From the IMG/VR virus record IMGVR_UViG_2563366882_000002: 36,507 nt of DNA, one strand, 5' to 3'. Under the pieces are notes generated by a model, which had not been told where the DNA came from, did no database searches, and saw only the letters and a list, made by a program, of their open reading frames with translations. Positions 8,987 through 25,796 of this stretch are shown here, one piece after another. The translations under genes were made by a program, and so were the position numbers. Numbering within the stretch: the stretch's first letter is position 1; each line of letters begins with the position of its first letter. Source of the DNA: a virus. Its lineage: Duplodnaviria > Heunggongvirae > Uroviricota > Caudoviricetes.

Positions 8987-9727
8987 TCAGTTTTCTTTGA
9001 ATTTTTCACTTAATCGTTTCGTCAATACTTCGACAGATTCTTTGCGACCGGAGAACAAGTCATTGACGACGTACTCCATAATCTCAAAAGCATCCTCAAT
9101 GTCTTTGACTTTTACTTCATCGTAGGTATGGCTTCCGGCATTTCCTAAAAATTTAATTGCCATAAGAGGTCTTGAAAACGATCCGTATAATTCAGGTAGC
9201 ATCCCTAAACGGTGGTGTAGAGTTATGCGTTTGCCATTATCATTACGTTCAGCTACATCCATAGCGGTTAGCATTCTTTCAACTGAAATTCGAATTAGGT
9301 TTGCTGCTGCGCCAGGCTGTATTAGGAAAATGGAAAATGAGGCTTCAAGCGGTTCGGTAATTTCTTCTGGGCATTTTTCAGGTATTTCGAAAGGATGCAG
9401 TGATGGGTAAAAGGTGAAAGGTCTGTGCCATTGATAGTACTCAATATCATTTCTTTCTTCATCCCAACCTTGTTCCCATCCACTCTTACCAGTACAGGCC
9501 ACAACTTCACCACATTGCATTCTTGAACAGCGGGCCATGCAACTGAAAATAGATGAATCCATTTCTAGTTCAAACCAATCTTCACTGCGGAATTTTCGGG
9601 TATCATGTGTGTCATACGAGACGAAACTTTCTTTAATGATCTGTAGGGTTTTCTGATTGCAGTTAGGGCAGGGCCACTCAACCTGCATATCGTGGAAAAA
9701 CGCACCAGAGAGCTTGTGCACAGTCAT
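8987..9727 (-). CDS. Zn-ribbon + DUF4145-like protein, candidate abortive-infection/defence gene
   Basis: 246 aa; CPNC...CMARCSRMQCGE cysteine cluster; C-terminal IKFLGNAGSH...helical region resembling DUF4145 (from memory); AT-rich; sits at the P2 tin/old position. Confidence 0.45.
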   Translation of the reverse strand: MTVHKLSGAFFHDMQVEWPCPNCNQKTLQIIKESFVSYDTHDTRKFRSEDWFELEMDSSIFSCMARCSRMQCGEVVACTGKSGWEQGWDEERNDIEYYQWHRPFTFYPSLHPFEIPEKCPEEITEPLEASFSIFLIQPGAAANLIRISVERMLTAMDVAERNDNGKRITLHHRLGMLPELYGSFSRPLMAIKFLGNAGSHTYDEVKVKDIEDAFEIMEYVVNDLFSGRKESVEVLTKRLSEKFKEN

Positions 9728-9997
9728 TCTTTGTGTTCCTCATTTTTATGATTGGTAGGGATTGTATCTTCATACACGATTACAGTTGCATTAAAGATAA
9801 GCCATAGCAAGCTACTGGAAAAGAGACGAAACAGTTGGGCATATCAGATGTTTTTTCTTAAGGTAAGTTGTTGTGCATGCCTATACTGCATGAGATTGCA
9901 TGATCGTTTGAGGATCGTTATTGCTAAGGCCCACCAGAACTGGCGGGCTTTTGCGTAGAGCATGCAGGTGCATGAAAACAACTACATAAAGCGGGCA

Positions 9998-10016
9998 GGC
10001 GTGGCGGGGATACGAG
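9998..10016. other. candidate cos cohesive-end site (GGCGTGGCGGGGATACGAG)
   Basis: first 13 nt match my recollection of the 186/P2 19-nt cohesive end; located where P2 cos lies in the prophage map. Confidence 0.4.
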
Positions 10017-10168
10017 CGCGCGCTAAGTCATATAAGAGTTATATATTGATTTGATTGCTGGACATGCATACAGTATCGCTCTATCATCTAATAAATCTTA
10101 GAGTATTTGACAATGTTTGGATAAAATGGAACCTAACTTATTCATAATCCGCTAAACAGGGATGTCAG

Positions 10169-11083
10169 ATGCCATACCAATTGGTAGAGCTTAGCCCCGT
10201 AGCTAACGATCTTGAACAGTTAGGAACCAAAGAGAAGTTTTGGTTCTATTTCTCCGATGACACTGTAAATTTGCAGTTGTTTAAGTACTCTAGGCCAGGT
10301 ACTGGCGAGCATTGGTCTGAAAAGTGTGCTGCTGAGTTATGTCATTTGCTTAACATTCCACATGCTAGCTATGATTTGGCGCGATACAATGGTCGATTCG
10401 GTGTGGTGACTCAGAATATCATTCCATCTGGTTTCCGGATGGTAATGGGAAATGAAGTGCTTCACAGTTCGACATTCGATTATCCTGGGCCTTTACAAGC
10501 CGGGGAAAAGCCGGTAAGGGTCAGAGAACACACTGTCACAAGGGTATTGGGTTGTTTGGATAGGGAATCTATCAAGCCTCCTCCGAGTGTATATGATCTA
10601 ACCGGACTAAATGCAGCAGATGTATTTTGTGGATATTTGATGCTCGATGCACTTGTGAGTAATCAAGATCGCCATCATGAAAATTGGGCGATCATGCTTA
10701 ACAATGAAACTGGTGAGCAGTTTTTGTGTCCAACATACGATCATGCCGCTAGTTTAGGAAGGGAGATGTTAGATGATGAGCGTAACGAACGGCTTAATAC
10801 TAAAGATAAAAATCGACAAATCCCATGTTTTGTAAGAAAAGCTCGCTCTGAGCTATTCAAAGCAAAAACTGATAAAAAGCCCTTGCTGACCGTTGAAGCA
10901 TTTCAACATGCAGTTGAAGGGAGAGTTGCCGCTCGCGACCATTGGTTAGGTAAGTTGAGCGTTTTAACAGAAGATTCCATTACAGATGTGTTTAACCAAG
11001 TGCCTTCATCGTGTATATCCGACAGTGCACGTAGATTTGCAACGTTAATGGTAATGGAAAATCGCAGAAGGTTACTAGAATGA
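10169..11083 (+). CDS. HipA-like Ser/Thr kinase (HipA_C-only, HipT-like short form)
   Basis: 304 aa; GTKEKFW, LVSNQDRHHENWAI and CPTYDHAASLG motifs in HipA order and spacing; AT-rich. Confidence 0.6.
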   Translation: MPYQLVELSPVANDLEQLGTKEKFWFYFSDDTVNLQLFKYSRPGTGEHWSEKCAAELCHLLNIPHASYDLARYNGRFGVVTQNIIPSGFRMVMGNEVLHSSTFDYPGPLQAGEKPVRVREHTVTRVLGCLDRESIKPPPSVYDLTGLNAADVFCGYLMLDALVSNQDRHHENWAIMLNNETGEQFLCPTYDHAASLGREMLDDERNERLNTKDKNRQIPCFVRKARSELFKAKTDKKPLLTVEAFQHAVEGRVAARDHWLGKLSVLTEDSITDVFNQVPSSCISDSARRFATLMVMENRRRLLE

Positions 11084-11820
11084 CTAATACAAACTCCGTT
11101 TACGTCGCATGGCAGGCACCAGATACCAGAGACTGGCATGTTGTTGGTAACTTGCAAGAGCGCAAATCGGGGTATGTTTTCAGGTATACCAAAGGTGCTC
11201 TTAAATCTACTAAATTTACAAAGTTTAGCGGCATGAGTGATGTTCGTGAAACTTATGTTTCGGAAGAATTGTTTCCTCTTTTTAAAAATCGCCTTTTATC
11301 ACCGAGACGTCCAGAGTATCCGAGTTTCATTAAATGGCTTGGATTTGAAGAAGATAAGGTAAATCCTATCGATATTCTTGCTCGCTCGGGAGGCTTACGA
11401 AGCACTGATCAGCTGCAGATTTTCAAAAAAATTGATGTTGATTCTGATGGTAACTTTGAGCATTTTTTCTTCTTACATGGACTTGGTTACTTAAATAGCT
11501 TAGCTAATGCTCGTGTATCTGAATTGAAACCGGGGCAAATTTTGCGTCTTTGCTTGGATCTTCAAAATGAATACGATGGGGATGCTGTTGTCGTTCGTGC
11601 AGATAAACCAGCTGAAATCGTTGGTTACTGCCCTAGGTATTTAAGTAATGATATCAAGAAGATGTTATTGGATGATCCAAAATCAATCACTTTAACGGTC
11701 GAAAAGATTAGCGATGATGCTCCTCATAACTATCGGTTATTATGTAAATTATCAGGAGTACTAAGCCAAGCCTGTCAATCGACGCTGATTCCTCAGGATG
11801 AGTTTGAACCTATTGAGTAA
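11080..11820 (+). CDS. HIRAN-domain protein, partner of the HipA-like kinase
   Basis: 246 aa; ATGA start/stop overlap with the kinase gene; C-terminal GLGYLNS...LRLCLDLQNEYDGDAVVVRADKPAEIVGYCPRYL resembles HIRAN. Confidence 0.5.
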   Translation: MTNTNSVYVAWQAPDTRDWHVVGNLQERKSGYVFRYTKGALKSTKFTKFSGMSDVRETYVSEELFPLFKNRLLSPRRPEYPSFIKWLGFEEDKVNPIDILARSGGLRSTDQLQIFKKIDVDSDGNFEHFFFLHGLGYLNSLANARVSELKPGQILRLCLDLQNEYDGDAVVVRADKPAEIVGYCPRYLSNDIKKMLLDDPKSITLTVEKISDDAPHNYRLLCKLSGVLSQACQSTLIPQDEFEPIE

Positions 11821-11826
11821 ATGAAG

Positions 11827-11850
11827 AAAAGCCACCAAACGGTGGCTTTT
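11827..11850. terminator. bidirectional Rho-independent terminator (aaaagccacc-aaac-ggtggctttt)
   Basis: perfect 10-bp stem, 4-nt loop, A-run before and T-run after; between convergent 3' ends. Confidence 0.65.
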
Positions 11851-11854
11851 CTTA

Positions 11855-12895
11855 TTATGGGACTATATCTAGCGAGTAGGTATTAAACTGTATCGCCTCC
11901 TTGCCAAGCCAATCATTCATCTCCTGTAATCGCTTTTGTAGTGGCATTAGCTCATTTCGGACGAATACACGGCTTGCCTTTTCCACATCCCCAAACCCCC
12001 CAACATTATTCGGCATAATCCCCATCATTTGCGGCGGCACGCGGTGCGCTGCCATCATGTCATCCCGACTCACGTTCTTGATGTTAAGAAATTCATCCTT
12101 CGCCGCGACTTCTGACAATGGGATGATCTGAAGCCCGTCTTTTTTGCCGTTAGGTGAGTACATAAACAGGTTGCGGAAGTTGCCTGGACCTTTGGCGCTT
12201 TTCATCGCGTTGCGGAGGTTGTTCACATCCTCCTGATTCTGCGCGGCATCGGTCATGTACATGATGAAGCCTGCATGGCTGCCGTTGATGTAATACTTAC
12301 GGCGGAACAACGTGGCGGACTCGTTGAGCAGGGCTGACGGAATGGCAGAAAGATAACCGGGCAGGCCGTAGATCTCTTGGTTGATATCCGGTTCCATCAG
12401 ATGAAAGATGCTGCCTTTCGTGAACTGATACGGCTGCGTAGTCATGCCGTATTGCACAAACCAGTAGGTATCCAGGTCTAACCCGCGTCGGGTGTATTTT
12501 GCCAGCGCAGGTTCAAGGGCGATAACTTCACCGAAGCGGTTCGTGCGTTTCTCCAGGTAGGCGTTACCAAATACCAGATAGTCCTGCACAAAACGTGAAA
12601 AAGCCTGCTGGCTGAGCAGCGGGTGAGGGATATAGGTGCTGGTCAGAATGTTGCACTTTACTGCAATCGGTGAGCTGTGGTGTACGGCGGCGCGGAATGT
12701 TCGCGCCAGGCCGTCGAAACTCACAGGCGGCTCATACCAGCGGTCCATCTGTACGCATTCCACATAGTCCAGCAGTTCGCGACGGTCCAGAACAGGAACG
12801 GGATCGCCGAAGCTGAATGCTTCGGCTGAAGTCTGGCTTTTATGCTGGATCTGATTCATCGCCGCTGCGCGGTTTTTCTTACTCTTTCCCATCAA
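11855..12895 (-). CDS. Q: portal protein (P2 gpQ-like)
   Basis: 346 aa vs P2 Q about 344; P2 synteny. Confidence 0.8.
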   Translation of the reverse strand: MMGKSKKNRAAAMNQIQHKSQTSAEAFSFGDPVPVLDRRELLDYVECVQMDRWYEPPVSFDGLARTFRAAVHHSSPIAVKCNILTSTYIPHPLLSQQAFSRFVQDYLVFGNAYLEKRTNRFGEVIALEPALAKYTRRGLDLDTYWFVQYGMTTQPYQFTKGSIFHLMEPDINQEIYGLPGYLSAIPSALLNESATLFRRKYYINGSHAGFIMYMTDAAQNQEDVNNLRNAMKSAKGPGNFRNLFMYSPNGKKDGLQIIPLSEVAAKDEFLNIKNVSRDDMMAAHRVPPQMMGIMPNNVGGFGDVEKASRVFVRNELMPLQKRLQEMNDWLGKEAIQFNTYSLDIVP

Positions 12896-14658
12896 AAAAT
12901 CTCCACAATATTGCTGGTATTGGCGGATTCGCCCTGCAGCGGTTCGTTAAACAGTGCGTGCATCGTTGCCCAGGCCAGATCGGCGTGGCTGGCTTCTTCG
13001 CTGCGGCTGGCTTCATAGGTTGGGCGGTTGCCGCTCGCGGTGGTGGCGCGACGGATTGCCATGAATGACTGCGCTATGTCGGTGTGTCCGGCGTCAAACT
13101 CCAGACGGCGGTGGCTGATAATGTCGTAGGCCTTGAGTACCAGGGCGTTTTTAACATTGGGGTTATAGACAAACTCCCGGACGGCTGGAAAAAACGCTTT
13201 CACGTTCTCGTAAACCCCGTGGCCGACACCTGTCGAGTCGATGCCGATGTAGGTCACGTTGTACTGCTCGGTCAGTTTTTTGATGGCGTCAGCCTGGGCG
13301 CGGAAGTCCATCCCACGCCACTGGTGACGCTCAAGAATGCGGAACTTACCACCAGGCACGGCTGGCGGTGCCACCACTACGCATCCGGCGCTGTCGCCGT
13401 TTTGCGTACCTTTTGCCGGGTCATAACCGATCCACACTTCGCGCCAGCCAAACGGGCGCAGAGCCAGTGCATGAAAGTCGGTCCAGACTTCCCAGCTGTC
13501 CACCATGCACGCCTGCAGCTCGCTGAGCGGGAACACGGACGCGAGATCGTCCACAAACTCGCACATCAGCAGGTTCTGGTATTCGTCCGGGCTGTACTCC
13601 ATGCGCAACTGGTCAAGGTCGAACAGGTTACAGCCGCCGCGCACCGCATCTTCCACGGTGACTATCTGGCGGTATTGCCCGTCTGCGCACAGCAGGCCGG
13701 GGGCCAGATTGCTGTGGGACAGGTCGATGTCCACCTTGTCGGCCTTGTTGCGCCCACGGTTGAACAGCGCACCGGACCAGAACGGATAAGCACTGTGTGT
13801 CAGGCTGGATGGCGTGGAAAAATAGGTTTGTCGCCATTTTTTGTGAATAGCCATACCGGAAGCCACTTTGCGCAGCTCCTGGAATTTCGGTATCCAGAAA
13901 TATTCATCCAGATACAGGTTGCCGTGATAACTCTGGGCCGTGCGGGCATTGGTGCCGAGGAAGTAAAGCGTGGCTCCGTTAGGAAGCACCATCGGATCGC
14001 CTTTCAGCTCCACCTCGACTTCTTTGGCGAAGTCTATGATGTACTGCTTAAAGACGTGAGCCTGTGCCTTACTGGCAGAAAGGAAAATCTGGTTACGTCC
14101 GGTAAGCAGGGCGTCAATCAGGGCTTCACGGGCAAAGTAAAAGGTCGCGCCGATCTGGCGTGACTTCAGCAGGTTGCGGATGCGGTTGGTTTTTCCGGCT
14201 TCCCACCAGTGGCGCTGGTAGTTGAACATGGAGGAATGGAAAATTTCTTCCAGCTTCTCAATCTGTTCATCGGTGAAAACATTCTTTTCCGGCTGACGGC
14301 GCGGGCCTTTGTTGCGGTTGGCGACGTTAGGGTTTAAGTCGGCTTCGTTACCGCCATTGTTAAACTTGCCGATCCGCGCGTGGCGCTCCGACTGGCGCGC
14401 CAGCAGGTCAATTTCTTTGAAATCTTTCCCTTCTTTGTGCTCCTTCATAATGAGCTGGCAGTAGCGTGCGGCGGTGGTGAGCTGCATCTGATCCAGCGGC
14501 CCATAGTCACCCCACTTGTCGCGTTTTTTCCAGCTGTGAACGGTTGCAACTTTCTCGCCCAGCATTTCAGCAATGCGGGCTACGCGGTATCCCTGAAAGT
14601 ACAGCAGCATGGCCTGCCGACGGGGATCGAGATCTGCGGGTGTCAGTGTGGTGTTCAT
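12892..14658 (-). CDS. P: terminase large subunit (P2 gpP-like)
   Basis: 588 aa vs P2 P about 590; overlaps Q start. Confidence 0.8.
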   Translation of the reverse strand: MNTTLTPADLDPRRQAMLLYFQGYRVARIAEMLGEKVATVHSWKKRDKWGDYGPLDQMQLTTAARYCQLIMKEHKEGKDFKEIDLLARQSERHARIGKFNNGGNEADLNPNVANRNKGPRRQPEKNVFTDEQIEKLEEIFHSSMFNYQRHWWEAGKTNRIRNLLKSRQIGATFYFAREALIDALLTGRNQIFLSASKAQAHVFKQYIIDFAKEVEVELKGDPMVLPNGATLYFLGTNARTAQSYHGNLYLDEYFWIPKFQELRKVASGMAIHKKWRQTYFSTPSSLTHSAYPFWSGALFNRGRNKADKVDIDLSHSNLAPGLLCADGQYRQIVTVEDAVRGGCNLFDLDQLRMEYSPDEYQNLLMCEFVDDLASVFPLSELQACMVDSWEVWTDFHALALRPFGWREVWIGYDPAKGTQNGDSAGCVVVAPPAVPGGKFRILERHQWRGMDFRAQADAIKKLTEQYNVTYIGIDSTGVGHGVYENVKAFFPAVREFVYNPNVKNALVLKAYDIISHRRLEFDAGHTDIAQSFMAIRRATTASGNRPTYEASRSEEASHADLAWATMHALFNEPLQGESANTSNIVEIF

Positions 14659-14704
14659 GGCACAAACCTACAGCCTTGAATGAAGGCTTTCCCCGCCTGC
14701 GGTT

Positions 14705-14722
14705 TGTGTGGTTGTCGGTACA
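14705..14722. promoter_or_regulatory. Ogr-type late promoter element TGT-N12-ACA in the P/O divergent region
   Basis: TGTgtggttgtcggtACA, about 80 bp upstream of O. Confidence 0.5.
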
Positions 14723-14800
14723 AATACCGCGCATTGTTTCACTGCCCCCATCACCGCAACCATAAGGCTCCAGTAAGTTTTTTCTAACGGAGCACGGCTC

Positions 14801-15634
14801 ATGACAGTGAAAGCAAAGCGTTTTCGCATCGGGGTGGAAGGTGCCACCACCGACGGACGCGAAATCCAGCGTGAATGGCTGGAACAGATGGCAGCCAGCT
14901 ACAACCCGGCGGTGTATACCGCGCTGATTAACCTTGAGCACATCAAGTCTTATCTGCCGGACAGCACCTTTAACCGCTACGGCAAGGTGACGGCGCTGTT
15001 TGCTGAAGAAATCACGGAAGGTCCGCTGGCAGGCAAGATGGCGCTGTATGCCGACGTTGAGCCAACGGAGTCCCTGGTGGAACTGGTGAAAAAAGGCCAG
15101 AAATTATTCACCTCTATGGAAGTCAGCCCGAAGTTCGCTGATACGGGCAAAGCCTACCTGGTCGGCCTGGCTGCCACTGATGACCCTGCCAGTCTGGGCA
15201 CTGAAATGCTGACATTCAGCGCCAGTGCAGCCCATAACCCGCTGGCAAACCGCAAGCAGAATCCTGCCAATCTCTTTACCGCTGCAGAGGAAACGGTGAT
15301 CGAACTGGAAGAAATCCAGGATGACAAACCGTCCCTGTTTGCCCGTGTCACGGCGCTGTTCACCAAAAAAGAGCAGTCCGATGACGCCCGGTTCTCTGAT
15401 GTGCATAAGGCCGTGGAGCTGGTCGCCACTGAGCAGCAGAACCTGAGCGCACGCACCGAAAAATCCCTGTCTGAGCAGGAAGAACGTCTGTCTGAGCTGG
15501 AGACTGCCCTGCAGGCACAGCAGACCGCCTTTAACGAACTGGTGAATAAGCTGAGTCATGAAGACAGCCGCCAGGACTACCGCCAGCGTGCAACAGGCGG
15601 TAACGCCCCCGCTGACACTCTGACCAATTGCTGA
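14801..15634 (+). CDS. O: capsid scaffolding protein (P2 gpO-like)
   Basis: 277 aa; synteny. Confidence 0.75.
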   Translation: MTVKAKRFRIGVEGATTDGREIQREWLEQMAASYNPAVYTALINLEHIKSYLPDSTFNRYGKVTALFAEEITEGPLAGKMALYADVEPTESLVELVKKGQKLFTSMEVSPKFADTGKAYLVGLAATDDPASLGTEMLTFSASAAHNPLANRKQNPANLFTAAEETVIELEEIQDDKPSLFARVTALFTKKEQSDDARFSDVHKAVELVATEQQNLSARTEKSLSEQEERLSELETALQAQQTAFNELVNKLSHEDSRQDYRQRATGGNAPADTLTNC

Positions 15635-15650
15635 TGGAGCACAAAACCTG

Positions 15651-16709
15651 ATGAAGAAGAATACCCGCTTTGCTTTTAACGCTTACCTGCAGCAGCTGGC
15701 GCGTCTGAACGGTGTGGCAGTTGAAGAACTGTCCAGCAAGTTCACCGTGGAGCCGTCTGTGCAGCAGACGCTGGAAGACCAGATCCAGCAATCCGCCGCT
15801 TTCCTGACGCTGATTAACGTCACGCCAGTGACCGAGCAGTCTGGTCAGCTGCTGGGGCTGGGTGTTGGCAGCACCATTGCCGGAACCACTGATACCACCG
15901 CAAAAGAGCGTGAGCCTGTCGATCCGACGCTGATGGTCGATGTGGAATACAAATGCGAGCAGACCAACTTTGACACGGTGCTGACCTACGCGAAGCTGGA
16001 CCTGTGGGCGAAGTTTCAGGATTTCCAGGTGCGTATTCGTGACGCGATCGTGAAACGTCAGGCACTGGACCGCATCATGATCGGCTTTAACGGCGTGAAG
16101 CGTGCGAAAACCTCAAACCGTAGCGAAAACCCGCTGCTGCAGGATGTGAATAAAGGCTGGCTGCAGAAAATCCGTGAAGATGCACCGGATCACGTCATGG
16201 GCAGCACCACCACGGGCGGTGAAACCACACCGGGTGCGGTGAAAGTCGGGAAAGGTGGCGAATATGCCAACCTGGACGCCGTGGTGATGGATGCCGTCAA
16301 TGAGCTTATCGACGTGGTCTACCAGGACGATGACGATCTGGTGGTGATTTGCGGTCGTGAACTGTTGTCTGACAAGTATTTCCCACTGGTCAACAAAGAG
16401 CAGGAAAACAGTGAAAAACTGGCTGCCGATATGATCATCAGTCAGAAACGCATGGGTGGCCTGCAGGCGGTGCGTGCGCCGTTCTTCCCGCCGAATGCGC
16501 TGCTGATCACCCGTCTGGATAACCTGTCCATCTACTGGCAGGAAGATACCCGCCGCCGTTCAGTTATCGACAACCCGAAACGTGACCGGATTGAAAATTT
16601 TGAATCCGTTAACGAAGCCTATGTGGTTGAGGACTACCGCTGCGCCGCACTGGTGGAAAACATCCAGATTGGCGATTTCAGCGCCGCTGCAGCAGAAACC
16701 GGAGCGTAA
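15651..16709 (+). CDS. N: major capsid protein (P2 gpN-like)
   Basis: 352 aa vs P2 N about 357. Confidence 0.8.
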   Translation: MKKNTRFAFNAYLQQLARLNGVAVEELSSKFTVEPSVQQTLEDQIQQSAAFLTLINVTPVTEQSGQLLGLGVGSTIAGTTDTTAKEREPVDPTLMVDVEYKCEQTNFDTVLTYAKLDLWAKFQDFQVRIRDAIVKRQALDRIMIGFNGVKRAKTSNRSENPLLQDVNKGWLQKIREDAPDHVMGSTTTGGETTPGAVKVGKGGEYANLDAVVMDAVNELIDVVYQDDDDLVVICGRELLSDKYFPLVNKEQENSEKLAADMIISQKRMGGLQAVRAPFFPPNALLITRLDNLSIYWQEDTRRRSVIDNPKRDRIENFESVNEAYVVEDYRCAALVENIQIGDFSAAAAETGA

Positions 16710-16712
16710 TCC

Positions 16713-17363
16713 ATGAGCCTGAGTCCCGCACGGCAGCATCGCCTGCGCGTTCAGGCTGAACAGGCCGCCCGCGAGGGCGGCAGTGTTCGCCACGCATCGG
16801 GCTATGACCTGATGCTGCTGCAACTGGCGGAAGACCGCCGCCGTCTCAAGGGCGTTCAGTCCACGGTCAAAAAAGCGGAAATCAAGGTGGAGCTGCTGCC
16901 GAAGTACGCCGCCTGGGCAGAGGGTGTCCTGGCTGCCGGAGGCGCTCAACAGGATGACGTGCTGATGTACGTGATGCTGTGGCGCATTGATGCCGGAGAT
17001 TATGCCGGAGCGCTGGAGATCGGGCGTCATGCCCTGCGTCATGGCTGGGTGATGCCGCTGGGTAACCGCAACGTGCAGACCGTGCTGGCAGAGGAAATGG
17101 CAGACGCCGCGCAGAGCGCAATGCTTGCCGCCACCGGCTTTGATGCCGATCTGTTGCTGCAGACGCTGGAGCTGACAGACGGTCTGGATATGCCGGACCA
17201 GTCACGGGCGCGTCTGCATAAAGCGATTGGCGCTGTCCTGAGTGAAAGCAATCCGGCGTCCGCCCTTAATCATCTCAACCATGCGTTACAGCTCGATCCC
17301 CGCTGTGGCGTGAAAAAAGACAAACAGCAGCTGGAGCGCAGACTGCGCAATGACAGCCGCTGA
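16713..17363 (+). CDS. M: terminase small subunit (P2 gpM-like)
   Basis: 216 aa; synteny. Confidence 0.7.
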   Translation: MSLSPARQHRLRVQAEQAAREGGSVRHASGYDLMLLQLAEDRRRLKGVQSTVKKAEIKVELLPKYAAWAEGVLAAGGAQQDDVLMYVMLWRIDAGDYAGALEIGRHALRHGWVMPLGNRNVQTVLAEEMADAAQSAMLAATGFDADLLLQTLELTDGLDMPDQSRARLHKAIGAVLSESNPASALNHLNHALQLDPRCGVKKDKQQLERRLRNDSR

Positions 17364-17458
17364 CAGAACGTGCCCCCGCGCACGGGCGGCACGGGGTGGC
17401 GAAAGGCACAGCCTCATCAAAACCCCGTCCACCGCCCTCTATTTCAGGAGAAAGCAGC

Positions 17459-17923
17459 ATGAAGTTTGTTGCGCCAGAACAGGCACCGGAACAGGCGGAA
17501 ATCATCAGAAATACGCCGTTCTGGCCTGATGTGGACCTGTCGGAGTTTCGCAGTGTCATGCGCACTGACGGCACGGTGACTCAGCCGCGTTTAAAGCAGG
17601 TTGCCCTGTCGGCAATTTCGGAGGTCAACGCAGAGCTGTATGAGTTTCGCAGACGCCAGCAGATGCTGGGGTATGCCTCGCTGGCAGAGGTTCCGGCGGA
17701 ACAGCTGGACGGGAAAAGTGAGCGCATTCAGCACTATTTCAACGCGGTTTACTGCTGGGCACGCGCCATGCTCAACGAACGATACCAGGACTATGACGCC
17801 ACGGCATCCGGTGTGAAGCGAGGCGAAGAACTGGCGGAAGCCAGCGGTGATTTGTGGCGTGACGCCCGCTGGGCCATCAGCCGGGTGCAGGATGCGCCGC
17901 ACTGCACAGTGGAGCTTATCTGA
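17459..17923 (+). CDS. L: head completion protein (P2 gpL-like)
   Basis: start ATG 17459 after CAGGAG; the longer ORF start at 17396 lacks an RBS. Confidence 0.7.
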   Translation: MKFVAPEQAPEQAEIIRNTPFWPDVDLSEFRSVMRTDGTVTQPRLKQVALSAISEVNAELYEFRRRQQMLGYASLAEVPAEQLDGKSERIQHYFNAVYCWARAMLNERYQDYDATASGVKRGEELAEASGDLWRDARWAISRVQDAPHCTVELI

Positions 17924-18126
17924 TGAAAGTGCGTGCGTATCAGTATGACACGGTGGACGCGCTTTGCTGGCGTCATTACGGGCGCACGCAGGGTGTCACG
18001 GAGCAGGTACTGAAGGCAAATCCGGGGCTTGCCGAATACGGCCCCTTTTTACCTCACGGGCTGCAGGTGGAGCTGCCGGACATACCGACCACCACCACCG
18101 TGCAGACCGTCCAGCTATGGGACTGA
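17923..18126 (+). CDS. X: tail protein X
   Basis: 67 aa, identical length to P2 X. Confidence 0.65.
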   Translation: MKVRAYQYDTVDALCWRHYGRTQGVTEQVLKANPGLAEYGPFLPHGLQVELPDIPTTTTVQTVQLWD

Positions 18127-18129
18127 ATT

Positions 18130-18345
18130 ATGACGCTTGAGCGAATCAGCGCCTTTATCACGTATTGCATCGCCGTCGTGCTGGCCTGGCTGGGCGATTT
18201 GTCCATCAAGGATGCCTCAACGCTGGGCGGCCTGATGATTGGTGTGCTGATGCTGGCTATCAACTGGTACTACAAACACAAAGCCTACCAGCTTCTGCGC
18301 GACGGGCAGATCTCGCGGGAGGACTATGAATCCATCAATCGTTAA
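18130..18345 (+). CDS. holin (small two-TMD, pinholin-like)
   Basis: 71 aa, two hydrophobic segments, charged C-terminus, directly before the endolysin. Confidence 0.7.
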   Translation: MTLERISAFITYCIAVVLAWLGDLSIKDASTLGGLMIGVLMLAINWYYKHKAYQLLRDGQISREDYESINR

Positions 18346-18838
18346 ACGCTGCCTTGTCGGGGCCGTGCTGGCTATTGCTGCCACGCTGCCGGGTTTTCAG
18401 CAGCTTCACACCTCCGTGGAGGGGCTGAAACTGATTGCCGATTACGAAGGCTGTCGTCTGCAGCCGTATCAGTGCAGCGCGGGTGTCTGGACCGACGGCA
18501 TTGGTAATACATCGGGCGTCATTCCCGGCAAAACAATCACGGAACGACAGGCAGCAGAAGGGCTGATCTCCAACGTGCTGCGTGTGGAGCGGGCACTGGA
18601 AAGGTGTGTGAAGCAACAGCCACCACAGAAGGTGTATGACGCTACGGTGTCGTTTGCCTTCAACGTGGGGACGGGCAATGCCTGTAGTTCCACGCTGGTG
18701 AAATTGCTCAATCAGCGGCGCTGGGCGGATGCGTGCCGACAGTTGCCGCGCTGGGTTTATGTAAAAGGTGTGTTTAATCAGGGGCTGGATAACCGCCGTG
18801 CGCGGGAGATGGCCTGGTGTTTACAGGGAGCAAACTGA
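18326..18838 (+). CDS. endolysin, lysozyme-type with N-terminal signal-anchor (SAR) segment
   Basis: hydrophobic LVGAVLAIAATL near N-terminus; lysozyme-like EG...YEGCRLQPYQ...GVWTDGIGNT. Confidence 0.75.
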   Translation: MNPSIVKRCLVGAVLAIAATLPGFQQLHTSVEGLKLIADYEGCRLQPYQCSAGVWTDGIGNTSGVIPGKTITERQAAEGLISNVLRVERALERCVKQQPPQKVYDATVSFAFNVGTGNACSSTLVKLLNQRRWADACRQLPRWVYVKGVFNQGLDNRRAREMAWCLQGAN

Positions 18839-18839
18839 A

Positions 18840-19217
18840 ATGAAAAAGAAATTAATCAGCGGGCTGTTTCTGATGTTATGGATGGCGCTGTTAATCGCAG
18901 CAATGGTGTATCCGCAAGGGATCTTTCCGGTACTGGCAGCGTCCGGCGTTTGGGTAGCCTGTTTGCTGACATGGGCGGTAATTCCGGTAGCACTGGCTGC
19001 GTTAATTCAGAATGGCCCGCTCTGGCAGGAGTTAAGGGCATCTTTGCTGAAGACAATTACCCGAAAAGAAAACGTATTTATCTGTTGGGTGATGCGATTG
19101 CTGATTGTTGTAAGTCTCGCATGGACGGGGTGGGCTATTACCCTGGTCTTTTATCTACTGACCGTTATTGCCTTCTGGATCACCCGTAATCAGATGGCGC
19201 AACAGGTAGCAGCATGA
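18840..19217 (+). CDS. membrane protein in lysis cassette (LysA-like)
   Basis: about 125 aa from MKKKL with several hydrophobic helices. Confidence 0.5.
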   Translation: MKKKLISGLFLMLWMALLIAAMVYPQGIFPVLAASGVWVACLLTWAVIPVALAALIQNGPLWQELRASLLKTITRKENVFICWVMRLLIVVSLAWTGWAITLVFYLLTVIAFWITRNQMAQQVAA

Positions 19218-19642
19218 ACCGGTTGCTGCTGGTTGTGCTGGCGTTATTACTGGCGGCGCTGGGCTGGCAGACGTGGCGGCTGGCTGATGCCAGCCAGACC
19301 ATCAGCACGCAGGCAAACGAGCTGCAGAGCAAAAGCCAGGCACTGGCAAAGAGCAACAGCCAGCTTATCAGCCTGTCCATTCTGACTGAAACCAATAACC
19401 GGGAGCAGGCGCGGCTCTATGCCGAAGCAGAACAGACCAGCGCACAGCTGAGACAACGACAACGCCGGATCGAGGAACTGAAACGTGAGAACGAGGATTT
19501 ACGCCACTGGGCTGGTACTCCTTTGCCTGCTGACATTATCCGGCTGCGGGAACGTCCGGCACTCACCGGAGGTGCAGCTTACCGTCAGTGGTTGTCCGCG
19601 AGTGACGCCGTGTCGGCTGGAGCAGGCAGCACCGCGCACTAA
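19214..19642 (+). CDS. LysB, Rz-like inner-membrane spanin
   Basis: N-terminal TMD then coiled-coil-like Q/E/R-rich periplasmic domain. Confidence 0.6.
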   Translation: MNRLLLVVLALLLAALGWQTWRLADASQTISTQANELQSKSQALAKSNSQLISLSILTETNNREQARLYAEAEQTSAQLRQRQRRIEELKRENEDLRHWAGTPLPADIIRLRERPALTGGAAYRQWLSASDAVSAGAGSTAH

Positions 19643-19775
19643 CGGTGATCTGAATGCGTTGCTGGATGAAACGGAGGCCGCCTGGGCGGTCTGTGCAGAC
19701 AAAGTGGACATGATTATTGCGTGTCAGGAGCGAAACAGTGAACAAACCACAATCCCTGCGCCACGCCCTCAATAA
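19485..19775 (+). CDS. LysC, Rz1-like outer-membrane lipoprotein spanin
   Basis: lipobox LTLSGCG; overlaps the 3' part of LysB out of frame. Confidence 0.55.
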   Translation: MRTRIYATGLVLLCLLTLSGCGNVRHSPEVQLTVSGCPRVTPCRLEQAAPRTNGDLNALLDETEAAWAVCADKVDMIIACQERNSEQTTIPAPRPQ

Positions 19776-20169
19776 AGCGGTGCCTTATGTCCGCAATAAC
19801 CCGGACAAACTGCATCTGTTTGTGGATAACGGTTCGCTGGTTGCCACGGGGGCCAGCTCCATGTCATGGGAGTACCATTATACCCTCAACGTGGTGATTG
19901 AGGATTTCAGCGGCGACCAGAATCTGCTGATGGCCCCGGTTTTGCTGTGGCTGAGGGATAACCAGCCCGATGCCATCAATAACCCGGCGTTACGGGAAAA
20001 GCTATTCACCTTTGAGGTGGATATTCTGCGCAACGATGTCTGTGATATCAGCCTGAACCTGCAACTGACGGAACGTGTGCTGGTCAGCACTGACGGCAGT
20101 GTGTCGAGCGTTGAAGCTATAGCGGAACCTGATGCACCTGAAGAAATGTGGACGGTGAAACGTGGCTGA
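19738..20169 (+). CDS. R: tail completion protein R
   Basis: proposed GTG start 19738 after AGGAG; synteny. Confidence 0.55.
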   Translation: MNKPQSLRHALNKAVPYVRNNPDKLHLFVDNGSLVATGASSMSWEYHYTLNVVIEDFSGDQNLLMAPVLLWLRDNQPDAINNPALREKLFTFEVDILRNDVCDISLNLQLTERVLVSTDGSVSSVEAIAEPDAPEEMWTVKRG

Positions 20170-20608
20170 ACTGCAGAAGGTGGACGACTGGCTGAGTGCC
20201 TTGCTGGCGAATCTGGAACCAGCCTCGAGAAGCCGCATGATGCGCCAGCTGGCGCAGGAACTTCGCCGGACACAGCAGCAGAATATCAGGATGCAGCGCA
20301 ACCCTGACGGCAGCAGCTATGAACCGCGACGGGTAACAGCACGCAGTAAAAAAGGCCGTATCAAACGTCAGATGTTTGCAAAGCTGCGCACCACAAAATA
20401 CCTGAAAACTGCCGCCAGCACCGACTCTGCCAGCGTGCAGTTTGAAGGCAAGGTGCAGCGCATTGCCCGCGTTCACCATTACGGCCTGCGAGATCGCGTC
20501 AGTCGTAAGGGACCGGAGGTGCGTTACGCAGAGCGTCGCCTTCTGGGTGTAAATGATGATGTTGAGGCAATGACCCGCGACATGATTCTGCAATGGCTGG
20601 CGGGGTGA
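20162..20608 (+). CDS. S: tail completion protein S
   Basis: 148 aa vs P2 S about 150. Confidence 0.65.
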   Translation: MAELQKVDDWLSALLANLEPASRSRMMRQLAQELRRTQQQNIRMQRNPDGSSYEPRRVTARSKKGRIKRQMFAKLRTTKYLKTAASTDSASVQFEGKVQRIARVHHYGLRDRVSRKGPEVRYAERRLLGVNDDVEAMTRDMILQWLAG

Positions 20609-20612
20609 TCTT

Positions 20613-20630
20613 TGTATCAGCACTGATACA
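20613..20630. promoter_or_regulatory. Ogr-type late promoter element TGT-N12-ACA upstream of V
   Basis: TGTatcagcactgatACA in the S/V gap. Confidence 0.5.
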
Positions 20631-20676
20631 AGTTGCAGCACTGCCGCCTTTCTTCCCCTGATGGCAACCTTTCCCT

Positions 20677-21255
20677 ATGAACGCACAATTAACCGAAATC
20701 ATGCGCCTTATCACCAACCTGATCCGCACAGGGGTAGTCACCGAAGTGGATAGGGAAAACTGGCTTTGCCGGGTGAAAACGGGCGAGCTTGAAACCAACT
20801 GGATCAGCTGGCTGACGCTGCGTGCCGGGAATGCCCGTACATGGTGGCGACCATCGGAAGGTGAGCAGGTGGTGCTGCTGAGTCTGGGCGGCAATCTGGA
20901 AACCGCCTTTGCGCTGCCCGCTGTCTATTCGAATCAGTTCGCACCACCGTCGACGTCGGCGGATGCCTGCGTGACAGAACATCCTGACGGTGGCTGGTTT
21001 GAATACGAACCCGCCACCGGGCGCTGGTATGTCAGGGGCATCAAATCAATGGTCATTGAGGCTGCTGACAACATCACCATGAAAACCAGTGAGTTTGTAC
21101 TGGAGGCTGACCGCACGCGCATTAACAGCGAAGTGGTGATCAATGGTGGCGTTACCCAGGGCGGCGGAGCGATGAGTTCTAACGGGATCGTGGTTGATGC
21201 GCATCAGCATACTGGCGTCCTGAAAGGCGGCGATACAACCGGAGGCCCGGTATGA
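20677..21255 (+). CDS. V: baseplate assembly/spike protein V
   Basis: 192 aa; synteny. Confidence 0.75.
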   Translation: MNAQLTEIMRLITNLIRTGVVTEVDRENWLCRVKTGELETNWISWLTLRAGNARTWWRPSEGEQVVLLSLGGNLETAFALPAVYSNQFAPPSTSADACVTEHPDGGWFEYEPATGRWYVRGIKSMVIEAADNITMKTSEFVLEADRTRINSEVVINGGVTQGGGAMSSNGIVVDAHQHTGVLKGGDTTGGPV

Positions 21256-21611
21256 CGCTTTATAGCGGGATGAACAATACCAGCGGCAAAGTCATTACTG
21301 ATATTGATCATCTGCGCCAGTCGGTGCGGGACATTCTGCTGACACCGCAGGGTAGCCGTATTGCCCGCCGGGAATATGGTTCCCTGCTGTCTGCACTGAT
21401 AGATCAGCCACAAAATCCGGCATTACGCCTGCAGGTCATGTCGGCTGTGTATGTTGCACTGAGTCGCTGGGAGCCACGGCTGACGCTGGATTCCATCACT
21501 ATTAACAGCAATTTTGACGGTTCAATGGTGGTGGAGCTGACCGGACGGCGGAATAACGGTGTGCCTGTGTCCCTTTCAGTATCAACAGGAGCAGAGAATG
21601 GCAGTGATTGA
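21252..21611 (+). CDS. W: baseplate protein W
   Basis: 119 aa vs P2 W about 115. Confidence 0.75.
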   Translation: MTLYSGMNNTSGKVITDIDHLRQSVRDILLTPQGSRIARREYGSLLSALIDQPQNPALRLQVMSAVYVALSRWEPRLTLDSITINSNFDGSMVVELTGRRNNGVPVSLSVSTGAENGSD

Positions 21612-22506
21612 CCTTTCGCAGTTGCCTGCACCGCAGATTGTGGATGTGCCGGACTTTGAGACGCTGCTTGCCGAACGCAAGGCAGAATTTGTGGCGCTTC
21701 ATCCGAAAGATGAGCAGGAAGCAGTGATCCGCACGCTGGAACTGGAATCTGAACCCGTCACCAAATTGTTGCAGGAGAACGCTTACCGTGAGTTGCTTCT
21801 GCGCCAGCGCATTAATGAAGCCGCGCAGGCGGTAATGGTGGCTTACGCGATGGGCGGCGATCTTGACCAGATCGCTGCCAACTACAACGTGAAACGCCTG
21901 ACGGTGACGCCTGCTGATAATGACGCTGTGCCGCCCGTGGCAGCAGTGATGGAAAGCGATGAAGCGTTACGCCTGCGTGTGCCTGCAGCCTTTGAGGGGC
22001 TTTCAGTTGCGGGGCCAACTGCAGCTTATGAATTTCATGCCCGAAGCGCCGACGGTCGGGTGGCGGATGCCAGTGCAACCAGCCCGGCACCTGCAGAGGT
22101 GGTGCTGACTGTCCTTAGCCGCGAAGGCGATGGAACTGCAGAAAAAGACCTGCTGGACGTGGTGGAAAAAGCTCTGAACAGTGAGAACGTCCGCCCGGTG
22201 GCTGACCGTCTGACGGTTCGCAGCGCAGAAATCATCCCGTATCGCGTGGAAGCCACCATTTTTCTCTATCCGGGACCGGAAGCAGAGCCGGTAATGGCAG
22301 CGGCAAAAGCCAGCCTGCAGAAGTACATCGCCAGTCAGACGCGTCTTGGTCGGGATATTCGCCGTAGCGCCATCTTTGCCGCCCTGCATGTTGAGGGTGT
22401 GCAGCGTGTGGAGCTGGCTTCTCCTCTGGCGGATGTGGTCCTGAACAAAACACAGGCGGCATCATGTACGCAGTGGAGCGTAACCAACGGAGGAACGGAT
22501 GAATAG
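21598..22506 (+). CDS. J: baseplate protein J
   Basis: 302 aa from MAVIDLS, identical length to P2 J; CAGGAG RBS. Confidence 0.8.
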   Translation: MAVIDLSQLPAPQIVDVPDFETLLAERKAEFVALHPKDEQEAVIRTLELESEPVTKLLQENAYRELLLRQRINEAAQAVMVAYAMGGDLDQIAANYNVKRLTVTPADNDAVPPVAAVMESDEALRLRVPAAFEGLSVAGPTAAYEFHARSADGRVADASATSPAPAEVVLTVLSREGDGTAEKDLLDVVEKALNSENVRPVADRLTVRSAEIIPYRVEATIFLYPGPEAEPVMAAAKASLQKYIASQTRLGRDIRRSAIFAALHVEGVQRVELASPLADVVLNKTQAASCTQWSVTNGGTDE

Positions 22507-23104
22507 TCTGCTGCCACCGGGTTCAACTTCACTGGAGCGCCGACTGGCGCAAACCTGTAGCGGGATTTCTGATCTGCAGGTGCCGCTGCGTGACTTGTGG
22601 AGTCCGGCTACCTGTCCGGTCAGCTTCCTGCCTTATCTCGCCTGGGCGTTCTCTGTGGATCGCTGGGACGAGGGCTGGACAGAAAGCGTCAAACGCCAGG
22701 TAGTGAAGGATGCTTTTTATATTCATCAGCATAAAGGAACCACCAGTGCCGTGCGGCGGGTGGTGGAACCGTTCGGATTCCTGATCCGCATTATTGAGTG
22801 GTGGCAGACCGGAGAAACACCGGGCACGTTTCGCCTGGATATCGGCGTGCAGGACCAGGGCATCACTGAAGATACCTATCTGGAACTTGAGCGGCTGATA
22901 AGCGATGCCAAACCATGTAGCCGTCACATGATCGGCATGTCCATCAATCTGCAGACCAGCGGTCCGCATTGGGTGGGGGCCGCCAGCTATCTTGGCGAAG
23001 AAATCACGATCTATCCGTATATCAACGAAACAATTATTTCTGGCGGCACCGCGCATGAAGGCGGGGCGGTCCATGTTATTGACACAATGAGAGTGAATCC
23101 ATGA
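22499..23104 (+). CDS. I: baseplate protein I
   Basis: 201 aa; synteny. Confidence 0.75.
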   Translation: MNSLLPPGSTSLERRLAQTCSGISDLQVPLRDLWSPATCPVSFLPYLAWAFSVDRWDEGWTESVKRQVVKDAFYIHQHKGTTSAVRRVVEPFGFLIRIIEWWQTGETPGTFRLDIGVQDQGITEDTYLELERLISDAKPCSRHMIGMSINLQTSGPHWVGAASYLGEEITIYPYINETIISGGTAHEGGAVHVIDTMRVNP

Positions 23105-24237
23105 GCACAAAATTTTATACCCTGCTGACGGATATTGGCGCGGCGAAACTTGCCAGCGCCGCCGCGCTCGGTGTGCCGCTAAAAATTACCCATATGGCGG
23201 TCGGCGATGGCGGCGGAGTATTGCCAACGCCAGACTCAAAGCAGACTGCACTGGTAAATGAGAAACGCCGGGCTGCGCTGAATATGCTCTATATCGACCC
23301 GCAGAACAGCAGCCAGATTATTGCCGAACAGGTGATCCCTGAAAACGAGGGCGGTTGGTGGATACGTGAAGTGGGCTTGTTTGATGAGTCCGGGGCATTG
23401 ATTGCCGTGGGCAACTGCCCGGAAAGCTATAAGCCGCAACTGGCTGAAGGTAGCGGGCGCACTCAGACCGTGCGCATGGTGCTGATTACCAGCAGCACGG
23501 ACAATATCACCCTGAAAATCGACCCTGCCGTAGTGCTGGCAACCCGCAAGTATGTGGATGACAAGGCACTGGAGCTGAAGGTGTACGCGGATGATCAGAT
23601 GGCAAAACATCTTGCCGCACCGGACCCGCATTCACAGTATGCACCCAAAGAAAGTCCGACGTTTACCGGGACACCCAAAGCGCCAACGCCAGCCGCAGGG
23701 AATAACACCACGCAGATTGCGACCACCGCGTTTGTTCAGGCGGCTCTGACGGCTCTTATTAATGGTGCGCCAGCCACGCTGGACACGCTGAAAGAAATAG
23801 CCGCAGCCATTAACAATGATCCGAAATTCAGTACCACCATTAACAATGCGCTGGCACTGAAAGCGCCGCTGTCGAGTCCGGCACTCACCGGAACGCCAAC
23901 CGCACCTACTGCGGCACAGTCGGTCAACAATACACAGATTGCCACCACGGCATTTGTGAAATCGGCGATTGCGGCAATGGTGGGTTCTGCACCTGCGGCA
24001 CTGGATACACTGAACGAACTGGCGGCAGCGCTGGGGAATGACCCGAACTTTGCCACGACAATGCTTAATGCGCTGGCAGGTAAACAACCGCTGGACAATA
24101 CGCTGACTAATTTGAGTGGAAAGGATGTAGCTGGTCTTCTCACATACCTTGGTTTGGGAGAAGCGGCAAAACGGGATGTGGGAACAGGGGAAAATCAGAT
24201 ACCGGATATGGCTTCTTTTGCCAGTGGTGATGCATGA
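23101..24237 (+). CDS. H: tail fibre protein H, constant part plus first 21 codons of the invertible segment, ending at an in-frame TGA
   Basis: 378-aa ORF with repeated NNTQIATTAFV tail-fibre-like motifs; P2 H position. Confidence 0.75.
   Translation: MSTKFYTLLTDIGAAKLASAAALGVPLKITHMAVGDGGGVLPTPDSKQTALVNEKRRAALNMLYIDPQNSSQIIAEQVIPENEGGWWIREVGLFDESGALIAVGNCPESYKPQLAEGSGRTQTVRMVLITSSTDNITLKIDPAVVLATRKYVDDKALELKVYADDQMAKHLAAPDPHSQYAPKESPTFTGTPKAPTPAAGNNTTQIATTAFVQAALTALINGAPATLDTLKEIAAAINNDPKFSTTINNALALKAPLSSPALTGTPTAPTAAQSVNNTQIATTAFVKSAIAAMVGSAPAALDTLNELAAALGNDPNFATTMLNALAGKQPLDNTLTNLSGKDVAGLLTYLGLGEAAKRDVGTGENQIPDMASFASGDA
24137..24162. other. left recombination site of invertible segment (gix/hix-like)
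   Basis: TTCTCACATACC-TT-GGTTTGGGAGAA, two 12-bp imperfectly inverted half-sites around a 2-bp core, resembling hixL. Confidence 0.55.
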
Positions 24238-24498: not shown

Positions 24499-24581
24499 GT
24501 TGCGTGCGGTGTTTGTGTATAACTTTGATTTGGTTCATTTAATCGAACAAAGATGTTTACTGTGCAGGTCTAAACGCTGAT

Positions 24582-24779: not shown

Positions 24780-24877
24780 TGGGAGAAACAACTGCTAGTT
24801 AATATGACCAACACAGACATGGAAAGACTGCCATGCTCCGGGAAAGCGAATAAAGATCGTCTAGCAGTCGAGACACT

Positions 24878-25741: not shown

Positions 25742-25796
25742 TGCAGAGATAATGGCTAACTGGCATCATCCCCGGTTTTTATTCAGGGGATTGATC

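Follow-up and report, generated by a model that had tools for sequence, protein, structure and literature searches.

The question raised by this locus is what two coupled genes are doing between the cos site and the portal gene of a P2-like prophage. The window, a 36,507-nucleotide stretch of viral DNA, carries at this point a 1.83-kb cargo cassette (10025-11853, + strand) made up of a candidate promoter, two genes, and a terminator, with a 186-type cos core on one side and portal gene Q (11855..12895, - strand) on the other. A sequence-only reading had described the pair as a HipA-like kinase operon with a HIRAN-domain protein, and as a candidate anti-phage system that was both undescribed and without a match to any named system. 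The genes themselves, hipI (10169..11083, + strand) and hipN (11080..11820, + strand), are where that reading placed them and overlap by an ATGA at 11080-11083 that can be read directly in the sequence. They are the only two open reading frames in the cassette, with cos and a promoter-like site upstream. The cassette is also AT-richer than the phage core, as had been remarked, with a GC content of 0.405 versus 0.563 in the structural core (11855-23100). The interval from Q to cos is about 0.2 kb in P2-type prophages, so the sequence-only reading was right to call it short in P2.

The cassette limits are set by the point at which homology to Salmonella phage RE-2010 stops, at 10024, and by the GC values. 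On the left, the limit is cos. A search with the exact sequence of the P2 cos 19-mer, with up to three mismatches allowed, gave no match, and the site was located with the looser 186-type core, GGCGTGGCGGGGATACGAG, found at 9998. This homolog of the 19-nt cohesive end spans 9998..10016 (no strand assigned), matches GGCGNGGCGGGG exactly, and lies in a region in which 42 of 59 bases are collinear with P2-type cos. The cos flank is conserved over 9968-10024, and the core sits 171 bp upstream of hipI, a distance kept in all related loci (L002-L007). The slot across cos varies between loci, while hipIN is constant. In RE-2010, the same Q-side slot contains an AIPR gene annotated as preventing superinfection, so occupancy of this slot is not unusual in the lineage. 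The cassette was found at 99% identity or above in 21 of 5426 complete E. coli genomes. Its candidate sigma-70-like promoter, TGGACA-17-TATCAT (10059..10087, + strand), has 10 of 12 consensus matches and comes from a consensus scan only, in which it was the sole such site in 8200-12000. At the other end, RNA folding and reading of the sequence point to a hairpin terminator at 11824..11852 (no strand assigned), with a dG of -21 kcal/mol, a z-score of -6.2, and none of 200 shuffles equally stable. Because an A-run and a T-run flank the hairpin, it could work in both directions and be common to hipIN on the + strand and portal gene Q on the - strand.

The product of hipI is a 304-residue putative toxin that PADLOC, Pfam, alignment, and fold evidence together identify as a short Ser/Thr kinase of the HipA superfamily, consisting of the HipA-fold core with its active site intact. 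The motifs previously quoted for it, GTKEKFW, LVSNQDRHHENWAI, and CPTYDHAASLG, are present in the translation. A glycine-rich loop lies near the N-terminus (residues 18-26, including G19-T20-K21-E22-K23), followed by the catalytic D167-R-H-H-E-N172 and the Mg-binding D191. In an alignment of 22 HipI homologs (59-90% identity), LGTKEKFWF, SNQDRHHENWA, and YDHAAS are invariant. The protein matches the PADLOC model PDC-M03A over nearly its full length (2.1e-122). The domains assigned to the two genes in the sequence-only reading are correct. HIRAN was recovered by profile in gene 2, and although gene 1 by itself fell below the HipA_C threshold (20.7 bits versus 30.5, E 3.6e-4), all 22 family members match HipA_C, the best at 3.4e-8. 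The AF2 model of HipI (pLDDT 84.6) was matched by Foldseek with a probability of 1.0 to CtkA (TM 0.68/0.72), HipA, and HipT, and with the family profile result this upholds the description of gene 1 as a short HipA-type kinase. Its length, without the HipA N-subdomain-1, fits the range of the HipI family. An NCBIfam search returned nothing useful for either HipI or HipN.

HipN is a 246-residue protein identical to WP_000185757, and PADLOC, fold, and RefSeq evidence suggest a two-domain putative antitoxin and sensor. It matches the PADLOC model PDC-M03B over nearly its full length (3.4e-93), and in its AF2 model (pLDDT 88.4) a domain with the HipS fold is joined to a C-terminal HIRAN domain. 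The predicted N-terminal domain comprises approximately residues 4-115 (11089..11424, + strand), limits that are taken from the secondary structure of the model. In Foldseek, this domain matched the HipS chain of E. coli HipBST, 7ab3_E, with an E value of 2.7e-3, a probability of 1.0, a TM score of 0.74, and an rmsd of 2.9. This match lends support to what had been offered as a speculative guess, that the N-terminal 110 residues form a HipS-like module. The Pfam family Couple_hipA gave a weak signal (16 bits versus a threshold of 22.5), and was matched by 16 of the 22 family members with a best E value of 7e-4. The HIRAN domain, residues 127-228 (11458..11763, + strand), had also been proposed and is found by Pfam with an E value of 1.1e-13 (51.3 bits against a gathering cut-off of 24.7) and in 22 of 22 members. 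Pfam detects only HIRAN and Couple_hipA in this protein. By fold, the domain matches the HIRAN domain of HLTF (4xzg/4s0n) and a bacterial HIRAN domain (3k2y). PDB sequence searches with the single proteins and with a HipN profile found no significant relatives, so the likeness to HLTF HIRAN and to HipS is one of fold, without residue-level mapping. Within the HipN alignment, D160, Q162, N163, D166, A169, and R173 of the HIRAN domain are invariant across phyla.

With both proteins defined, the pair is almost certainly hipIN, a module named by Gerdes, Baerentsen & Brodersen in 2021 (mBio, PMC8262856) for a HipI kinase and its putative antitoxin HipN. These authors assigned it to clade XI of the Hip kinase tree, a clade for which zero analysed modules are listed. 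Their hipIN, from Proteobacteria, has the same short core-only kinase (279-321 residues, without N-subdomain-1) followed by a downstream gene for a HipS-like and HIRAN protein. There is no architectural difference from the pair described here, and the P2 cos-to-Q location is not discussed in that paper. The pair is also PADLOC PDC-M03, a phage defence candidate of Payne et al. 2024 (bioRxiv 10.1101/2024.01.29.577857), whose two models the window proteins match almost end to end and without difference. PDC-M03 was predicted from its embedding in BREX, DISARM, or type I restriction-modification (RM) loci, and its authors call PDC systems untested. The type I RM part of this signal is reproduced here. 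Lastly, Rousset et al. 2022 showed that the gpA-gpQ cos hotspot of P2 is rich in anti-phage systems, and their table of hotspot cargo contains the identical accessions WP_001146828 and WP_000185757. Since the pair is already catalogued under a name, the claim that it was undescribed fails on its own terms. It is instead already known, as catalogued prophage cargo whose defence role is a prediction, and the discovery value is small given that family, architecture, P2-hotspot location, and proposed mechanism are all public. Literature searches found no experimental evidence for hipIN toxicity, neutralisation, DNA binding, or phage protection. Most of the whole-word matches to HipI/HipN and HipAD were acronyms with other meanings, and a "HIRAN" match in Millman 2022 was false, arising from the author name "Hirano".

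Several relatives share parts of this design. HipBST of E. coli O127 is likewise a split HipA, with a core kinase and a separate HipS-fold protein, and its kinase HipT, which targets TrpS, is among the fold matches of HipI. In hipIN, however, the kinase gene leads, HIRAN is attached to the HipS-like domain in a single protein, and there is no HipB/HTH gene. Membership in HipBST was rejected as the cassette has no HipB HTH regulator gene upstream. HipL and the "Exonuclease + HipA" system pFR108 of Rousset et al., a distant fused relative, contain the same kinase, HipS-like, and HIRAN modules, but in one polypeptide. pFR108 occupies the same P2 cos hotspot on the gpA side and is accompanied by a DEDD exonuclease. 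The hipIN genes are two reading frames split by the stop codon within the ATGA overlap and not fused, and HipL membership was rejected. Rousset et al. cloned pFR108, and it does not figure in the three further systems that they report as active against eight phages. As it aligns to HipI at the catalytic core alone (E 9e-9; HipN N-terminus, E 0.034), this absence is weak evidence against defence by hipIN. A third relative, DS-6/HipAD (DefensePredictor, Science 2026, PMC13092281), defends E. coli in a manner that needs the catalytic residue and also joins a HipA-family kinase to a non-HipB partner, which gives a precedent for defence by a pair of this family. That partner is DUF3037 plus DUF1829 rather than HipS-like plus HIRAN, and HipAD membership was rejected as HipN has neither of these domains.

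The pairing of the translationally coupled hipI and hipN is conserved across phyla. An intact kinase adjoins hipN in 67 of 78 loci from many phyla, and in 35 loci the two genes overlap by 4 nt. In five loci, the kinase is broken or a remnant beside an intact HipN, which fits a toxic kinase better than one that is inert alone. The family comprises about 1,000 clusters at 50% identity, spread over many phyla and over temperate phages of two viral realms. Carriers include a lambdoid prophage, a Mu-like prophage, a Vinavirales prophage, a C. difficile phage, and an integrase island. A megablast search of deposited phage genomes with the cassette gave no match, and a protein-level search of these genomes recovered six distant phage-borne copies. 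Of 80 loci, 29 have type I RM genes close to hipIN, generally arranged as hsdM-hsdS-hipI-hipN-hsdR, and at least 20 loci have the pair between hsdS and hsdR. The cassette is mobile, passing among unrelated temperate phages and also entering type I RM operons.

HipI and HipN probably act as toxin and antitoxin. The model for this relationship is HipBST, in which the kinase HipT has HipS as its antitoxin, and inhibition would be relieved upon infection by another phage. HipI would then phosphorylate a translation factor essential to the cell. An aminoacyl-tRNA synthetase is the probable target, since HipA modifies GltX and HipT modifies TrpS in this way. The resulting halt in translation would abort the infection, to the benefit of the lysogen population as well as the prophage. 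As the trigger, the binding of free DNA 3' ends by HIRAN is favoured, with incoming linear genomes, replication or recombination intermediates, and restriction fragments as candidate sources. The sequence-only reading had offered the same abortive-infection model, which is plausible. Gerdes et al. (PMC8262856) have already put in print the idea that HIRAN senses phage DNA ends and so releases the kinase to abort infection; any novelty would therefore lie in the demonstration and not in the proposal.

A role in toxin-antitoxin defence is supported by the intact pairing, the unrelated temperate carriers, the proximity to RM genes, and the decay of the kinase where HipN is kept. The context argues for defence as well, in that the hotspot is rich in anti-phage systems, the slot contains AIPR in RE-2010, the phage carriers are varied, and type I RM genes are near. 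Guilt by association does not prove the function of hipIN, and the order of the genes counts against the model, as the kinase precedes its partner here but follows it in hipBST and, as toxin, in most type II toxin-antitoxin operons. The sub-threshold HipA_C score of HipI by itself is a further point against it. On balance, an anti-phage role is about evenly poised, and the same can be said of the fuller view that hipIN is accessory cargo of a cos-proximal P2-like prophage hotspot with an abortive role. The sensing of DNA ends by HIRAN is more tentative. More doubtful again is the complete proposal that HipIN is an abortive-infection system in which HIRAN itself senses the 3' ends of foreign DNA as an innate signal and releases a translation-stopping HipA-family kinase, with the copies in RM operons forming a second line of defence that responds to ends which restriction produces or leaves unprocessed.

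Foremost among the alternatives is that hipIN is a plain addiction or persistence module, stabilising the cassette or prophage through post-segregational growth arrest or causing stochastic dormancy like that of hipBA, in which HIRAN would function in autoregulation or DNA tethering and no specific phage role would exist. The coupled, toxin-antitoxin-like architecture and the loss of the kinase beside a retained HipN are both in keeping with such a module, as are the fact that the founding member HipA is known for persistence and the lack of a reported defence phenotype in the literature found. The cassette does not, however, contain an HTH autoregulator, and its repeated placement in the P2 cos hotspot, in type I RM operons, and beside the integrases of varied temperate phages is in locations where immunity genes, rather than generic stability modules, are enriched. 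Toxin-antitoxin modules at sites of this kind have in many cases proved to be defensive. The addiction or persistence role is rated unlikely.

Alternatively, HipN may be a targeting or activating subunit. Its HipS-like domain would supply the N-subdomain-1 that the kinase is missing, and HIRAN would recruit the holoenzyme to DNA 3' ends, where DNA-bound phage or host proteins of replication, recombination, or packaging would be phosphorylated in a direct and non-abortive defence. HIRAN is indeed a DNA-end binding module, and in HipA the N-subdomain-1 that corresponds to HipS is built into the enzyme itself. Yet HipS is an antitoxin in HipBST, the sole characterised split system, and a toxic kinase better explains the loci in which the kinase has degraded beside an intact HipN. 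An activating HipN is rather improbable. A guard-type trigger that does not involve DNA ends seems similarly improbable. Here, the phage would disable another cell function, either through anti-restriction proteins that inhibit type I RM or through host shut-off that depletes a labile HipN, and HIRAN would be structural or act in localisation only. Other defensive toxin-antitoxin systems are known to be triggered when their antitoxin is depleted, and the placement between hsdS and hsdR has a precedent, as prrC holds the same position within the EcoprrI operon, from whose product PrrC is freed by the Stp peptide of T4. Against this, no RM partner accompanies the E. coli cassette in its prophage, and the cassette is still 99% identical among E. 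coli copies, and the HIRAN pocket residues are invariant across phyla, which argues for ligand binding under selection. A further candidate, a role in the phage's own cos processing suggested by the adjoining cos site, was rejected because the pair is also carried by phages without cos, by integrase islands, and within RM operons.

Should DNA-end sensing by hipIN prove true, bacteria would have their first immune module built on a kinase that senses DNA ends, and the module would link a eukaryotic replication-fork repair domain to prokaryotic immunity. The E. coli copy, a compact 1.8-kb cassette with its own candidate promoter in a genetically tractable phage and host, is convenient for testing HIRAN as the DNA-end sensor of an immune kinase and for finding the kinase target. 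Its setting is shared with P2 old/tin and RE-2010 AIPR, AT-rich accessory genes that are expressed from the prophage and located in the same gpA-gpQ hotspot by cos. The proteins and mechanisms of these systems are unrelated to those of hipIN, and old/tin lies on the gpA side of cos, whereas hipIN and AIPR lie on the Q side.

The window contains a complete P2-like prophage and, after it, the host genes ybjL and ybjM. The prophage carries an integrase (1-1131, minus strand), a CI repressor (1449-2024, minus strand), replication gene A (5852-8272), the portal gene Q (11855-12895, minus strand), terminase (12892-14658, minus strand), a tail fibre (23101-24237), and gpD (32243-33343). The stretch from A to Q is an AT-rich cargo region, with a GC content of 0.414 vs 0.563 in the structural core. 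Within it lie hipI (gene 1, 10169..11083, 304 aa), encoding a short kinase of the HipA superfamily, and hipN (gene 2, 11080..11820, 246 aa), encoding its partner; the two genes overlap by ATGA and are tightly coupled. A 186-type cos core, GGCGTGGCGGGGATACGAG, is found at window position 9998, collinear with the P2-type cos (42/59 bases), and because it is upstream of gene 1, the pair is placed between cos and Q. The spacing from this upstream cos to hipI is exactly 171 bp in six independent loci, and the interval from Q to cos measures 1.83 kb in the window as opposed to ~0.2 kb in P2-type prophages. The sequence-only reading had described two overlapping ORFs with kinase motifs, in DNA more AT-rich than the phage core and in a cos-portal gap that is short in P2; all of this is borne out, down to the presence of every quoted motif in the translation.

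The pair, hipIN, is contained in a cassette spanning 10025-11853 with a GC content of 0.405. In an alignment, Salmonella phage RE-2010 is collinear with the window across the cos flank to 10024 and diverges completely beyond, which sets the left edge; the equivalent slot in RE-2010 holds an "AIPR family protein, prevents superinfection". At the right edge, a strong hairpin (11824-11852, dG -21 kcal/mol, z -6.2) lies between A and T runs, 2 nt from the Q stop codon, and is therefore able to terminate both hipIN and Q transcripts. A candidate promoter, TGGACA-17-TATCAT (10059-10087), is the sole sigma-70-like site across 8200-12000. With promoter, two coupled genes, and terminator inside its edges, the cassette is thus a self-contained unit.

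HipI itself matches Pfam HipA_C weakly (E 3.6e-4, under the gathering score), while the family is matched by all 22 aligned homologs (best E 3.4e-8). Three motifs do not vary among homologs of 59-90% identity: LGTKEKFWF in the Gly-rich loop, SNQDRHHENWA in the catalytic loop, and YDHAAS, which binds Mg. The AlphaFold model (pLDDT 84.6) matches the HipA-like kinase CtkA of H. pylori (TM 0.68/0.72), as well as HipA of E. coli and Shewanella and HipT of Legionella, and the HipA N-terminal subdomain is absent. HipI is thus as had been proposed, a HipA-type kinase lacking that subdomain and, judging from its motifs, apparently active. Residues 16-26, EQLGTKEKFWF, are invariant in the Gly-rich loop region, including E16 and T20. 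HipA and HipT have regulatory autophosphorylated serines immediately ahead of this loop; HipI lacks a serine at that position, which leaves T20 as the sole candidate for autophosphorylation.

In HipN, residues 127-228 form a HIRAN domain (Pfam E 1.1e-13, above threshold), and the model (pLDDT 88.4) matches the HIRAN domains of HLTF and of one bacterial protein, in agreement with the C-terminal assignment made from sequence. A HipS-like N-terminus had been offered as speculation. The model's fold agrees with that of HipS as crystallised in E. coli HipBST (7ab3_E, probability 1.0, TM 0.74, rmsd 2.9 Å), and the N-domain reading is therefore supported at the fold level; a sub-threshold Pfam match to Couple_hipA, the HipA N-terminal domain, recurs in 16 of 22 homologs. 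HipN is accordingly modelled as a HipS-fold domain joined to a fold that binds DNA ends.

The proposal that the pair was undescribed does not hold. [quoted passage not shown] In PADLOC, the phage defence candidate PDC-M03 matches both proteins (PDC-M03A to HipI at 2.1e-122, PDC-M03B to HipN at 3.4e-93), and the cassette has the complete architecture of both hipIN and PDC-M03. HipI and HipN are identical to WP_001146828 and WP_000185757, which stand together in the table of P2 gpA-gpQ hotspot cargo of Rousset et al. (2022). In a hotspot of a Vibrio prophage, the same authors labelled a pair "HIRAN-kinase", and they also cloned pFR108 ("Exonuclease + HipA"), a distant fused relative that is not one of the three further P2 systems for which they report activity; its alignment with HipI is limited to the catalytic core (E 9e-9), and that with the start of HipN is weak (E 0.034). 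A 2025 paper, citing the PADLOC prediction, reports HipA plus HIRAN clusters adjoining deoxydinucleotide-specific nucleases. The public record thus already contains the pair, the class of location it occupies, and the mechanism proposed for it. The cassette is not HipBST, as it has no HipB, nor HipL, as kinase and partner are unfused, nor HipAD, whose partner domains differ.

hipIN is a widespread system for which no experimental test was found in the literature surveyed. Of 5426 complete E. coli genomes, 21 have the cassette at ≥99% identity, and exact copies of HipN abound in public assemblies. Every locus shown has the cassette next to the portal gene of such a P2-like prophage. The gene across cos differs among prophages with identical hipIN (DUF6694, DUF4145 as in the window, or three different unknowns), which suggests that cos has an independent cargo slot on each side. 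In the window, the gpA-side slot is filled by a 246-aa DUF4145 protein (8987-9727, minus strand, Pfam 4.9e-13) with a weak, near full-length PADLOC match (1.6e-5) to PD-T7-4, a validated defence system that consists of a single gene. Identical cassettes lie in P2-like prophages beside glaH in E. coli SCU-115 (L001) and beside ybjL/ybjM in the window, and one genome has two copies (hit H14); the cassette is therefore common to distinct prophages and integration sites. In a 5.98-Mb genome (L004:9918-16620), a 1652-aa protein takes the place of terminase after the hipIN-portal block; it has weak matches to NERD, Pkinase, and UvrD/AAA_11/AAA_12 helicase families. The arrangement looks like a truncated prophage beside a further large gene that is a defence candidate.

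Divergent versions of the pair are found in a Stutzerimonas integrase island, an Enterobacter lambdoid prophage, Mu-like and Vinavirales (non-tailed) prophages of Vibrio, and a C. difficile temperate phage, always with the kinase first and the HIRAN protein second. A HipN profile search returned 1001 clusters (50% identity) at E ≤1e-10; of the 150 listed, almost every one has two domains and a length of 240-265 aa. We surveyed 80 loci in species-representative genomes that span many phyla; 78 of them have room upstream. An intact adjacent HipI-type kinase is present in 67 of the 78, with a 4-nt overlap in 35. Five loci (L030, L039, L050, L088, L096) have an interrupted kinase or C-terminal remnant beside an intact HipN, and in six (L043, L048, L055, L070, L071, L085) no kinase was detectable beside it. 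The decay seen is specific to the kinase and spares HipN, and some of these cases could reflect faulty assembly of metagenome-assembled genomes. Clustering of neighbouring genes placed type I RM genes near hipIN in 29 of the 80 loci, so the embedding signal behind the PADLOC prediction is independently reproduced; 20 loci have both hsdM/S and hsdR. Most often the genes run hsdM-hsdS-hipI-hipN-hsdR on a single strand, with the pair between hsdM/hsdS and hsdR in 20 loci of distant phyla (e.g., L058:1882-9849 and L073:661-9951) and hsdR often starting within ~10 nt of the hipN end. The genomic context of hipIN is mobile and defence-type.

By analogy with HipT and HipS, HipN would inhibit HipI through its HipS-like domain. 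Phage infection would lift this inhibition, with engagement of free 3' ends by HIRAN as the most plausible trigger, and HipI might then phosphorylate a translation factor, as HipA does GltX and HipT does TrpS, arresting the infected cell. A guard-type trigger independent of DNA ends is suggested by the position of hipIN inside RM operons, a position matched by that of prrC. Alternatively, HipN could be a recruiting or activating subunit, or the pair a plain addiction or persistence module. An experimental precedent for the class is DS-6/HipAD, a different HipA-family pair that protects E. coli and requires its catalytic residue.

Elsewhere in the prophage, a DinI-like gene (8324-8858, plus strand, Pfam DinI 2.5e-22) overlaps a small ORF ahead of it for which no family matches. 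Related loci have a 62-aa ORF and a 77-aa DinI at this place, and the longer calls in the window therefore probably extend past the true starts. A 152-aa ORF (3096-3554, minus strand), opposite in strand to the early operon and in a lower-GC patch (0.43), has no match in Pfam or PADLOC; a 152-aa minus-strand ORF, likewise without matches, is at the equivalent place in L006, another locus with hipI, and the ORF may be another moron gene. The AT-rich region after the tail-fibre gene (24000-26400) contains two small minus-strand ORFs without family matches and a Hin/Cin-type serine invertase (25629-26363, plus strand, matching Resolvase at 5e-53 and also HTH_7); it probably serves as an invertible switch of tail-fibre host range.
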